DNA of 30,540 bases from a virus (lineage: Duplodnaviria; Caudoviricetes). Position numbers and translations under genes: made by a program. The stretch is taken from IMG/VR virus record IMGVR_UViG_3300028588_000068, positions 1 through 30,540 of that record; one strand, written 5' to 3'. Under the pieces are notes generated by a model. That model worked only from the letters and a program-made list of their open reading frames with translations. It was not told the origin of the DNA and did not search any database. Positions 4,649 through 8,361 of this stretch are shown here, in pieces (within the stretch, counting starts at the first letter, position 1; every line of letters begins with the position of its first letter).

Positions 4649-4932
4649 AGGCGGTGTCCGATCGAGGCGAAGCGGTAGAGGCTGCGGAACCGGGTGCGGT
4701 GTCCGCACTTGGCGCAGCGGACGTAGTTGTCGCTGGCCTGGAAGTCGTCGGCGTGGGCGTCGCAGATCTCGATCTGCTGTCCGCAGCAGGCCTTCGTGCC
4801 GACCTGCATGGCGGGTGCTGTGCACTCGATGCCGGTGGCGATGACCTTGCAGATCTGGACGGGCTTCGTGAAGAAGTCCAGCTCCTTGAGGTCGGCGAGC
4901 TGCTCGGGCGTGAATGGGGTGTCGGCGCTCAT
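4645..4932 (-). CDS. Cys-rich, putative zinc-binding protein
   Basis: 95 aa with CC, CDAH and CAKC motifs; coupled in the operon. Confidence 0.7.
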   Translation of the reverse strand: MSADTPFTPEQLADLKELDFFTKPVQICKVIATGIECTAPAMQVGTKACCGQQIEICDAHADDFQASDNYVRCAKCGHRTRFRSLYRFASIGHRL

Positions 4933-5729
4933 GCGTTCACGACCTGCTTGGAGCTGTTCACGGCGGGAGGGGTGCGCGAGTCGCGGCGGTATCGGTTGAC
5001 GCTGTCCTTGTGGAGGCCGAGGACTTCGGAGATCTCGGCGTCGGACAGGTGGTGGTCGCGGTTGAGGATCAGGACCGCGCTCATGCGCTCGAGGCGGTTC
5101 AGGGTGGGCTTCTCGCCCAGCACGGCGAGCTCGATCGCGATCTCGTCGAGGAACACGGGTGCGGTGTCCTGCGCGGGCTCGTCGGCGTCGATGTCGTCCC
5201 AGGCAAGGGGCGGCAGCCAGCCGAGGGCACGGGCGTAGCCACGGCAGCGCTCAGAGGCGGCACGGTCGTGCTCGGTATCGAGCGGGGGCAGTGTGTTCCA
5301 GAGCTGCTCGTACAGGCCGCAGATCGTCGCGTGCGTCGTCGCACGGATGCTGTCCTGCCGGAGTACTCGACCGAACTGGCGCTGGCTCAGGCCGAGCCGG
5401 TCGGCGAGCTTGTTCTGTGACCAGCCGTTGCAGATGAGGGCCTGAACGCGGCGCCGTGCACCGGTCGCGGGGACGATGGCGAGGGAGTCGACGCTGGCGG
5501 GGACGGAGAGGATCCCCCGGGCGGTCTGCCAGCGCACGCGGGCCGGCATCTGTCCGCGCCGGGTCGCGCCTCGGCGCCCGGCGACGATGACGCGGACGCT
5601 ATCGACGGTGAGACCTGCGAGCTCGGCGACGCGGCGGTAGCCGATGCCCTGGGCGGCGAGGAGGGCGAGGTGTGCGCGGACGACGTCGGCGTCGACGAAG
5701 GCGGGCGCTGCCGTGACGGGGCGCAGCAT
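4929..5729 (-). CDS. Multi-HTH DNA-binding protein
   Basis: Start at ATG 5729 (MLRPVT). Three HTH-like segments: GIGYRRVAELAGLT, GWSQNKLADRLGLS, LSDAEISEVLGLHKDSVNRYR. Confidence 0.8.
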   Translation of the reverse strand: MLRPVTAAPAFVDADVVRAHLALLAAQGIGYRRVAELAGLTVDSVRVIVAGRRGATRRGQMPARVRWQTARGILSVPASVDSLAIVPATGARRRVQALICNGWSQNKLADRLGLSQRQFGRVLRQDSIRATTHATICGLYEQLWNTLPPLDTEHDRAASERCRGYARALGWLPPLAWDDIDADEPAQDTAPVFLDEIAIELAVLGEKPTLNRLERMSAVLILNRDHHLSDAEISEVLGLHKDSVNRYRRDSRTPPAVNSSKQVVNA

Positions 5730-6004
5730 CAGCGGATCCCGACGCTCTGCGCTGTGGCGACGATCTTGTGCACGCTGAGGATGCGCGCGATCGCCTCGAG
5801 GCGGGTGGCGACATGCCCGATGGCGTACCCGCCGACGACACGGTCGTTGACGACGACGGAGGCGTGCACCTTGACCTGGCCGAGGCCGTCGCCCTGGAAC
5901 GTGCCGAGCTGGTAGGCACCATCCTCGAGCTGTGACCCCGTCATCTGCGGAGGGAACGCGAAGACCGTCTGGCCCGTAACGCGGACCCACTTCTCTTCGC
6001 CCAT
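5729..6004 (-). CDS. Hypothetical protein
   Basis: 91-aa ORF with TGATG coupling at both ends. Confidence 0.7.
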   Translation of the reverse strand: MGEEKWVRVTGQTVFAFPPQMTGSQLEDGAYQLGTFQGDGLGQVKVHASVVVNDRVVGGYAIGHVATRLEAIARILSVHKIVATAQSVGIR

Positions 6005-6180
6005 CAGCCGTGAGCCCTACGCGACACCACGACGAGCACGCCCACGAGCACAACGACGAGACACAGAGCAGCCCACAGCGTCTGGGCGGCGTACTCGAGC
6101 ACGAGCAGCACGAAGACGACCGCGAGAGTGGCGGCCAGGGCACGAACGGCGCGGCGAACGCGCAGTGCGGCCGTACTCAT
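6004..6180 (-). CDS. Small two-TM membrane protein (58 aa)
   Basis: Below ORF-track cutoff. Reads MSTAALRVRRAVRALAATLAVVFVLLVLEYAAQTLWAALCLVVVLVGVLVVVSRRAHG; coupled to the downstream gene. Confidence 0.7.
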   Translation of the reverse strand: MSTAALRVRRAVRALAATLAVVFVLLVLEYAAQTLWAALCLVVVLVGVLVVVSRRAHG

Positions 6181-6622: not shown

Positions 6623-6835
6623 TCAAGCGACACCGTCCTCTGAGCCTGCTGCGGGAGAAGCGAGCGCTTCGACCTCGGCGATGAGGTAGCGACGGTGCCC
6701 GGAAGGAAGCTTCACGGGGTGCAGCTTTCCCAGCGATTCAAGGCTCAACAGTGTCGAACGGCTGACGCTTAAACGAGCCTGCGCCCAGCTCGAAGTCGCC
6801 AACGCATCTTGGGTCGCAATAGTTGGTTTCTGCAT
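6623..6835 (-). CDS. Excisionase / Cro-like MerR-type HTH protein
   Basis: Start at ATG 6835. LSVSRSTL..LE..GKLHPVKLPSGHRRY..EVEAL is a winged-HTH Xis-like motif. First gene divergent from the repressor. Confidence 0.8.
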   Translation of the reverse strand: MQKPTIATQDALATSSWAQARLSVSRSTLLSLESLGKLHPVKLPSGHRRYLIAEVEALASPAAGSEDGVA

Positions 6836-6841
6836 ACGAGG

Positions 6842-6870
6842 ACCATACGACCCGGTCCAGTCGATTGCAA
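6842..6870 (-). promoter_or_regulatory. Early lytic promoter (leaderless)
   Basis: Minus strand TTGCAA-17 nt-TATGGT, then 6 nt, then the ATG of the Xis/Cro-like gene. Confidence 0.7.
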
Positions 6871-6905
6871 GCAGATTCTGCCTAATTAACCGCACAAAAC
6901 GATTC

Positions 6906-6935
6906 TGGACAAAACAACTAGTTCTGCCCTACGCT
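6906..6935 (+). promoter_or_regulatory. Repressor promoter (leaderless)
   Basis: TGGACA-18 nt-TACGCT, then 6 nt, then ATG 6942; no Shine-Dalgarno. Confidence 0.65.
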
Positions 6936-6941
6936 GCCAGC

Positions 6942-7310
6942 ATGTCGATCAACACTGCGCTGCCTGGCGAAATGGACGGACTGACCGCCGATGCGGAAGT
7001 CGGCCTGAGAGTTCACACCCTTATGTGGGAGCGACGCATGACCCAGGCGCAACTCGGAGAGAAGCTGGGGCTGTCGCAGACCGGCGTTGGCAGACGACTC
7101 CGAGGGACGAACGGCTGGTCGGTCGCAGATTTGCGGGCCACTGCCCGCGTCCTTGGCGTGACAGTTGCCTACCTCGTTGGAGAGGAAGGGGTAAATCCGA
7201 CGCCCGGCAGCGTGAAGAGTCAGCCTTCAGATTACTCAGCCGACCATCGGGCCCCCGTTGTGTCGCTCTTCAGCCGTCGCGAGCTGGCCCGCGTCGCTGC
7301 CGCGCACTGA
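6942..7310 (+). CDS. Immunity repressor (XRE HTH) with C-terminal tail ending VAAAH
   Basis: MTQAQLGEKLGLSQTGVGRRLRG..WSVADL..A.VLGVTVAYLVG is an HTH_XRE pattern. Lies upstream of and co-oriented with the integrase. Confidence 0.9.
   Translation: MSINTALPGEMDGLTADAEVGLRVHTLMWERRMTQAQLGEKLGLSQTGVGRRLRGTNGWSVADLRATARVLGVTVAYLVGEEGVNPTPGSVKSQPSDYSADHRAPVVSLFSRRELARVAAAH
7221..7242. other. Putative attP core inside the repressor gene
   Basis: CAGCCTTC-AGATTA-CTCAGCCG. CAGATTA (7228-7234) is the reverse complement of TAATCTG in the tRNA-Arg anticodon arm, and the 8-bp arm is shared with the tRNA. Confidence 0.7.
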
Positions 7311-7425
7311 CTGTTCTGCCTGTCCTCCGCGCGGTAACGATATGAGTACGCCTCACGCCAACACGCGTTGGCTATCCGTAGTTTCGACTGACCCCCACAC
7401 ACCCGATACCGGTGAGGATCAGAAC

Positions 7426-8361
7426 ATGGATGACGACGCGATACTCAGCTTCTGGGCGGCATACCAAGCCGCCGAGAGCTGCACCCCTGGCACGATAAAG
7501 GAACGCATGATCGTCGTGCGAGCCCTGCTGCGCCGCTCAGAGAAGACGCTGCTTACAGTCACGCGACACGACCTCATAGCGGACCTCGCACGCGATTTAA
7601 GCCCTAAGACAAGGCAGAACTACAAGAGCCTGTTCCACACACTGTTCGCCTGGATGCAGGACGAGAGCTTCCGCCAAGACAATCCGGCCGCCCGGCTCCC
7701 CCGCACTCGGGTGCCGAAGTCCGAACCGAACCCCGTGACGACCGAAGACATCGAGTTCTTGCTCAACAGCGGCATCTATGCCAAGACACGGATGTACGTC
7801 CTCCTCTACGCCTACCAGGGATTCAGGGCCGTGGAGATCGCAGCAGTCTCCGGAGAGACGATCGACTGGGACCGGCGCCGCATCCTCTCGAAGGACGGCA
7901 AAGGCGGCAAGGAAGTGTGGCGCCCGATCCACGACATTGTTTGGTCCGAGCTGCAGCGCTACCCCCGCGAAGGTCCGCTGTTCCCCTCCCCCGCCGGCGG
8001 GCACATCAGCCGGAAGACGGTCTCCAATGTCCTGTCGAAGGCGTTCACGCGCGCAGGCATTGATCACCGACCTCACCAACTGCGCGCCTGGCACGCAACT
8101 GAGCTGATCGAAGCCGGAGTCTCCACCCTCGTCGCGCAGCACTCGATGCGGCACTCTGACCTGCAGTCCCTGAACAGGTACGTGACCGTGTCGGAGAAGC
8201 GGCTGCGCGAGGCAATGGACATGCTGCCAGGGGTGCTCGTTCCCCTCCGCTCCGGTAGAGTCTCGGGGTCCGCCCCCGTAGCTCAGTGGATAGAGCAGCA
8301 GCCTTCTAATCTGTCGGTCGCGAGTTCGAGTCTCGCCGGGGGCACCTCCGCTGCAGCTTGA
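7426..8361 (+). CDS. int: Tyrosine integrase (small, no evident N-terminal arm-binding domain)
   Basis: Catalytic residues: R (GFRAVE), K (GKGGK), HxxR (HQLR), H (MRHSD), Y (RYV). ATG 7426 has a GAGGA RBS (alternative start 7342). Ends GGTSAAA. Confidence 0.92.
   Translation: MDDDAILSFWAAYQAAESCTPGTIKERMIVVRALLRRSEKTLLTVTRHDLIADLARDLSPKTRQNYKSLFHTLFAWMQDESFRQDNPAARLPRTRVPKSEPNPVTTEDIEFLLNSGIYAKTRMYVLLYAYQGFRAVEIAAVSGETIDWDRRRILSKDGKGGKEVWRPIHDIVWSELQRYPREGPLFPSPAGGHISRKTVSNVLSKAFTRAGIDHRPHQLRAWHATELIEAGVSTLVAQHSMRHSDLQSLNRYVTVSEKRLREAMDMLPGVLVPLRSGRVSGSAPVAQWIEQQPSNLSVASSSLAGGTSAAA
8272..8344 (+). tRNA. tRNA-Arg(TCT), complete, nested in the integrase ORF
   Basis: Cloverleaf: acceptor GCCCCCG/CGGGGGC, D-arm GCTC-AGTGGATA-GAGC, anticodon loop CT-TCT-AA (anticodon 8305-8307), T-arm GCGAG-TTCGAGT-CTCGC, discriminator A. 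CCA is not encoded. Confidence 0.95.

Follow-up and report, generated by a model that had tools for sequence, protein, structure and literature searches.

A whole tRNA-Arg(TCT) gene lies in frame within the integrase gene of a probable Microbacteriaceae phage and is likely a rescue tRNA in a lysogeny switch with a predicted attP in the repressor gene

Two lysogeny systems that resemble the locus examined here have both been published. In tRNA-dependent lysogeny, described for Fionnbharth (cluster K4) and for phages of clusters L, X (Gaia), CQ2 and DL, integration by way of a short core requires a cognate tRNA of the phage (PMC10865867). In switches of the BPs type, tags on Rep and Int direct proteolysis (PMC3694055, PMC4557955). 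One case that combines the two systems is known, the tandem prophage prophiT36-2b of Mycobacterium abscessus, for which integration-dependent immunity is reported and for which the prophage's own tRNA-Thr is proposed to rescue the impaired tRNA at attL (PMC9934374). In the available part of that report this is a single tandem-prophage case with cores of 40 bp, and its tRNA lies outside int, at a distance of about 2 kb from attR. In the literature covered, which included few subscription papers, we found neither this combination of immunity and rescue tRNA in Microbacteriaceae nor a report of a whole tRNA gene on the same strand inside an integrase gene.

Overlap between integrase genes and att or tRNA sequences has precedents of other kinds. 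In Mx8 and SSV1 the integrase gene overlaps its own att site, and in E. coli DLP12 intD reportedly overlaps argU, a tRNA-Arg(UCU) gene. The overlapped tRNA of DLP12 is the host target and lies in antisense, with attP in or beside int. By contrast, the tRNA described below appears to be phage cargo, and attP is predicted in rep.

The stretch of DNA that was analysed (the window) is a whole virus record of 30,540 bases with about 68% GC. Genes for portal, capsid and tape-measure proteins lie on the minus strand in its right side, and a central cassette holds a divergent small HTH gene, a repressor gene (rep) and a tyrosine integrase gene (int). Since phage genes flank this cassette on both sides, the window was read as the unintegrated layout. 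The named homologues of Int are from Microterricola, Herbiconiux, Leucobacter and Microbacterium, and its top phage match is Microbacterium phage Min1 (57.5% identity); the phage likely infects a host in the Microbacteriaceae. The small HTH gene (6623..6895, minus strand), taken from the list of open reading frames, is called cro-like from its position and from a weak match to a MerR HTH model (E 2.6e-5, under the cutoff); it had no PHROG match. Divergent from it lies rep (6942..7310, plus strand), which matches HTH_3/BetR and PHROG repressor families and encodes 122 residues in its viral form, followed by int (7426..8361, plus strand; PF00589, E 1.6e-19), which encodes 311 residues. An in-frame ATG at 7342 would give an Int of 339 residues, and the frame is open also from 7258; because the leader from 7342 to 7425 before MDDD (WLSVVS) is kept in Min1 and in one further locus (L023), the true start of Int may be 7342. 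Elsewhere in the window, 4929-6143 encodes a 404-residue protein with several HTH repeats that belongs to PHROG 1590, of unknown function.

The cassette shares with tRNA-dependent lysogeny a tyrosine integrase, a short core in the anticodon arm of the tRNA that serves as attB, a host tRNA that would be left unrepaired and a phage tRNA of the same isotype (PMC10865867). With BPs, Brujita and Charlie it shares a cro / rep-int cassette of about 2 kb, an attP core inside the repressor open reading frame, a stop added by the host upon integration that would truncate Rep, and an Int tag of the AA type (PMC3694055, PMC4557955). On sequence grounds the cassette is an integration-dependent immunity switch that also incorporates tRNA-dependent lysogeny. 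It differs from each parent. Unlike the phages treated in the available part of PMC10865867, it has its predicted attP in the repressor gene, and no arm-binding domain such as their integrases have is evident in Int. In Fionnbharth the tRNA also overlaps a gene end (gene 37), on the opposite strand, and in Gaia it lies downstream of int, whereas here it is inside int on the same strand; Table 2 of that paper contains neither Arg-TCT nor Microbacteriaceae hosts. Unlike the BPs-type phages as described in the parts consulted of PMC3694055 and PMC4557955, the window has a core of 6 bp and not a tRNA 3' half, so that a rescue tRNA would be needed; its Int tag stands behind a whole tRNA gene, and its Rep ends in AAAH and not in AA, which makes the Rep tag atypical.

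The attP core was predicted by comparison with prophages. Of 401 genomes of the family that were searched, 26 contained Int with an E value no higher than 1e-30, and in 11 of them E was <1e-60; a second family search led to the same genomes, and a search at genus level covered two genomes. A tRNA-Arg(TCT) gene was found directly behind int in seven of the 11 genomes and was absent there in four. In those seven, and in provirus G003, the host tRNA-Arg(TCT) gene was found to be split, that is, in all eight prophages with both ends visible (G002 and G251 hold one prophage, which enters the count a single time; the ends in G001 lie on different contigs). In these eight, the 5' half of the host tRNA adjoins, in antisense, the end of a repressor gene of the HTH type whose last codons are Asp-TAG, the TAG being from the host anticodon, and the 3' half lies upstream of int, behind which follow the phage tRNA and then prophage-internal DNA. 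The shared cores measured 6 bp in five prophages and 7, 8 and 15 bp in the others. The corresponding core of the window, mapped by way of prophage-state relative L194 and of the window's own short-core rep, is predicted to be TAATCT (AGATTA on the plus strand) at 7229..7234 on the minus strand, inside rep at codons S96-D97-Y98; AGATTA occurs only there in the window, the eight prophages share this core, and the Asp-Tyr frame at the core is that of the prophages. L194 has an Int core 87.6% identical to that of the window, reads through the tRNA and is in the prophage state with attR upstream of int, where the 3' half of the host tRNA is joined at this core; its identity with the window is 39/60 inward of the core vs 14/60 outward, its rep remnant ends in GTAA, and its Int tail is intact (GGTSVAA). 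Both att ends were in view in none of the read-through members, L194 showing one; L147 likewise showed only one end. In the modelled host junction Rep ends in QPSD after 97 residues (GQPSD in the comparison prophage G055), in place of the RVAAAH of the viral form; many relatives end their viral Rep in AA or VA and several do not. Neither a lysogen nor an att joint of the window phage was detected in the assembled contigs of four runs.

Further observations were made around the core. It forms (as 7228-7234) a 7-bp inverted match with the anticodon arm of the nested tRNA (8307-8313), so that inversion by Int of the 1.08-kb segment between them is conceivable, which would truncate Rep without integration; joints of such self-inversion were absent from the assembled contigs of the four runs, and several relatives differ within the core. 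About 20 nt ahead of the core, CCCGGCAG (7198-7228) resembles the tRNA 3' half in the rep of relatives L149 and L151, and may be what is left of a long core that has decayed. Just outside attR, on its host side, L194 and a second locus (L121) carry the tRNA-Arg 3' half and a fixed spacer in tandem, in at least three copies.

The tRNA gene itself was identified by two programs. ARAGORN called tRNA-Arg(tct) at 8272-8346, and Rfam RF00005 covered 8272-8344 over its whole model at 67.2 bits; the gene (8272..8344, plus strand, CCA not encoded) folds as a cloverleaf core. The int frame is open across all of it on the same strand, where 24 Int residues are read from the tRNA; it encodes APVAQWIEQQPSNLSVASSSLAGG and ends in GGTSAAA, with the stop starting at the 15th nucleotide past 8344. 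An earlier note on this DNA had placed a whole tRNA-Arg(TCT) in frame within int, the int stop just past it, and a TAGAGT hexamer inside int 10 nt ahead of it, and these placements were borne out. Its view that one piece of DNA serves three ends stands for the protein tail, the tRNA gene and the likely promoter, but falls for an att-like site: the tRNA shares 7 bp with the core, but attP is predicted 1.07 kb upstream, in rep. Among 16 phage tRNA copies (15 distinct), 94.3% of stem cells were paired, and seven of 21 pairs were changed on both sides in a compensatory manner; none of 500 shuffles reached the observed pairing, a figure inflated by the relatedness of the copies. The sole systematic stem mismatch, C31-U39, is present in host copies too. 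Changes in the T-stem among read-through members alter the encoded peptide (SSSLAGG vs RSNRAGG), which suggests that selection acts on the tRNA rather than on Int residues. The window tRNA was also found to be 99% identical to that of prophage G002/G251 (L001, 1843-1917) while the Ints are 63% identical, which suggests a recent exchange of the tRNA between phages.

The predicted -10 hexamer of a tRNA promoter, TAGAGT (8256..8261, plus strand), occupies int codons G277-R278-V279 and ends 10 nt ahead of the tRNA. Homologous loci have a TAnnnT hexamer 8-11 nt ahead of the tRNA, and the modal spacing between the -10 element and the tRNA was 9-10 nt in 101 control tRNA genes. A promoter scan detected no full sigma-70 site, the -10 element being assigned by positional conservation. 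Behind the tRNA a terminator scan found none, and the folding of the 76 nt downstream was no stronger than that of shuffled sequences (z -0.73). Codon 278, within the predicted -10 box, is the one AGA in int, and AGA is rare in the window (9/555 Arg codons in 11 unrefined open reading frames); this codon may be a sensor or may simply arise because the codon of an invariant Arg overlaps the box. In two runs, contigs assembled from RNA, which bear on neither transcript ends nor transcript level, reached rep (6881-7116) and the gene that follows the tRNA.

The catalytic residues of Int (R134, K159, H217, R220, H243 and Y252) are invariant in the homologue alignment. AlphaFold modelled residues 1-280 with confidence and residues 281-311 as a low-confidence coil (pLDDT <50), at the end of which stands Ala-Ala-Ala-stop (8350..8361, plus strand). 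This SAAA end, which across the family takes the form [AVI]A, is a predicted ssrA-like degradation tag.

Homologues of Int were surveyed for read-through of the tRNA in the best 120 of 194 clusters. Ten clusters, the window's own included, read through it at 73-100% identity; nine were flagged by script, and the tenth (P0009) was added by eye and then confirmed. The tail of P0009 derives from a different tRNA-Arg allele entered in another frame, yet exits to LVA. With L196 and Min1 as two further cases, 12 read-through integrases were found in total, and all 12 end in AA, VA or IA; most belong to one related group and so are not independent events. The tag follows the tRNA-coded GG by 3-7 residues in the main group and by 13 in Min1, with unrelated spacers. 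The homologue comparison proposed in the earlier note thus gave a divided answer, in that the closest relatives do read through, but 110 of the best 120 lack the tRNA-coded tail. Of these 110, 105 still end in [AVI]A and five do not. In non-read-through forms the stop lies about 15 nt ahead of the tRNA and adjoins the TAnnnT hexamer, whereas in read-through forms the hexamer falls within Gly-Arg-Val codons. Relatives that carry the tRNA and lack an AA end include L156, L158 and L130, the last an intermediate whose stop lies 10 nt inside the tRNA. A search of metagenomes for the junction pattern returned nine loci, namely the window's own contig, two more read-through integrases and six tRNA genes without int, five of them called Arg(CCT).

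Openness of the frame was evaluated against a null set, drawn from a genome scan in which queries with tRNA-coded peptides matched host tRNAs at 79 of 80 loci; its members come from different phyla and differ in GC content. Of 101 other tRNA-Arg(TCT) genes, 94 leave this frame open, and openness alone is therefore unremarkable. By contrast, only one of these 94 ends in [AVI]A, and none does so within 45 nt (Fisher p = 7e-4 counting only two origins). Because 12/12 read-through Ints end in AA, VA or IA compared to 1/94 controls, translation of Int likely continues across the tRNA as far as a relocated, predicted degron. A quick tree of 72 Int cores, with tails removed and non-read-through members thinned to 60 of the 110, placed Min1 apart from the main group, and its starred branches force at least two changes. 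Judged by these comparisons, read-through is a derived lineage trait with at least two origins and not an error.

Evidence for a rescue function was found in lysogen genomes. In all seven the phage copy was the only intact match to tRNA-Arg(TCT), by exact pattern in genomes whose completeness was not given. In three of the four tRNA-less cases (G328, G353 and G075), each with an Int homologue, the only intact match was the host copy, and in the fourth the host tRNA was intact as well. Among free forms, L149 and L151 have the entire 3' half of the tRNA within rep and lack a tRNA gene in the examined loci, while the short-core forms (the window, L155, Min1 and L163) carry the tRNA; the contig of L164 ends at int. 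The phage tRNA is thus likely a replacement for a host copy broken at integration, a purpose that the earlier note does not mention, and, since related prophages do break the host copy, this spare likely keeps the infected cell alive.

Taken together, we place at roughly 80% the probability that a rescue tRNA is nested in int, that attP lies in rep, and that Int is translated through to the predicted Ala-Ala tag. Under this arrangement, rep and int would be read from one strand, and Int would recombine two sites, TAATCT in rep and the host tRNA's anticodon arm, as has been shown in relatives. The antisense anticodon of the host would supply a TAG, so that Rep would end at Asp97 and lose its tail, again as shown in relatives and as modelled here. 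Since a core of 6 bp cannot rebuild the host tRNA, the phage copy would supply AGA decoding. It would presumably be transcribed from the predicted promoter within int, even in a prophage, in which integration separates int from the promoter of rep. Ancestrally, Int would have stopped at this promoter, with AA- or VA-stop codons that abut or overlap the -10 box; in the window lineage this stop would have been lost, leaving the tRNA sequence as an unstructured linker with an AA tag behind it. The tag, by analogy to BPs, would keep Int short-lived.

The nested layout might be regulatory in addition to its rescue role. As the earlier note proposed, RNase P would cut the rep-int message at the 5' end of the tRNA, and the int mRNA, left without a stop codon, would be tagged by way of tmRNA and degraded. 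Ribosomes crossing the tRNA would block its processing, and the AGA codon 10-13 nt upstream could make the device sensitive to the supply of tRNA-Arg(UCU). The geometry fits, the lone and rare AGA of Int in the -10 box could be read in this way, and read-through arose at least twice. We nonetheless consider this unlikely, as every read-through Int retains its AA tag after the tRNA-coded part, which argues that uncut int messages are translated and that full-length translation matters. A tmRNA tag would moreover be the same kind of signal and add little to protein turnover, most of the best 120 homologues manage without nesting, the tRNA has its own predicted promoter, and the AGA follows from the invariant Arg that overlaps the -10 box, with Min1 lacking AGA there. 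That nesting couples tRNA supply to Int output, by competition of RNase P with the ribosome and with the AGA codon, decoded solely by the tRNA that integration destroys and the phage replaces, as sensor, is quite improbable; if true, it would add a new post-transcriptional layer to the lysis-lysogeny switch, evolved at least twice.

Read-through could also be a recent stop loss or an assembly error without function, given that one stop loss is enough where the frame is so commonly open and that most homologues do not read through. This is very hard to reconcile with its occurrence in ten clusters, L196 and Min1 on independent contigs, with the [AVI]A end of all read-through Ints and with a frame kept through the swap of tRNA allele in P0009. 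A further proposal of the earlier note, that the tRNA itself is attP and that integration swaps the C-terminus of Int in the manner of Mx8 or SSV1, draws on a host-like tRNA that contains the 6-7 bp core sequence. It is contradicted by L194, a prophage whose Int still has the read-through tail and whose attR lies upstream of int, and by the eight prophages, whose junctions all lie in rep and in which the DNA after the tRNA is prophage-internal; we find it scarcely credible.

The rescue-tRNA reading probably extends to cultured phages. Min1 (EF579802; L021, 1-117) was found to carry an unannotated tRNA-Arg(TCT) at 42-117 inside its annotated int coding sequence, which ends in GDRAA and matches the window Int in two pieces; the rep of this phage contains a short GATTAC core. 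Table 1 of PMC7302621 gives 0 tRNAs for Min1, which, in the available part of that paper, is reported to integrate into a plasmid. Arthrobacter phages of cluster FF have an Int of about 44% identity with a tRNA-Arg(TCT) nearby; these tRNAs lie outside int, and their role is unexplained in the accessible part of PMC13097055. In cluster FF-like loci (L118-L120 and L159-L165) the Int homologue is accompanied by a tRNA-Arg(TCT) gene that runs in the other direction, and a second integrase, with an AA end, is often present too; L163 and L164 have a GATTAC core in the upstream repressor; such phages likely share the rescue system. In L138, an Int of 34% identity occurs in the same layout, with tRNA-Thr(CGT) 13 nt behind the AA-stop and a tRNA 3' half upstream, and by this comparison the design recurs with another isotype.

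The window cassette is thus a real, conserved new variation on known lysogeny systems, in which two separately described switches are joined in one cassette that recurs in prophages of Microbacteriaceae. It offers an account, open to test, of the overlooked tRNA inside the Min1 integrase gene and of the tRNA-Arg(TCT) that cultured phages of cluster FF carry next to int. Annotation pipelines that discard overlapping features lose either the tRNA or the tag in such loci. A tRNA gene translated on its own strand is a natural system for competition among RNase P, the ribosome and tmRNA. For the lysogen, a single recombination would yield a more stable repressor and at once leave the cell reliant on the prophage tRNA.
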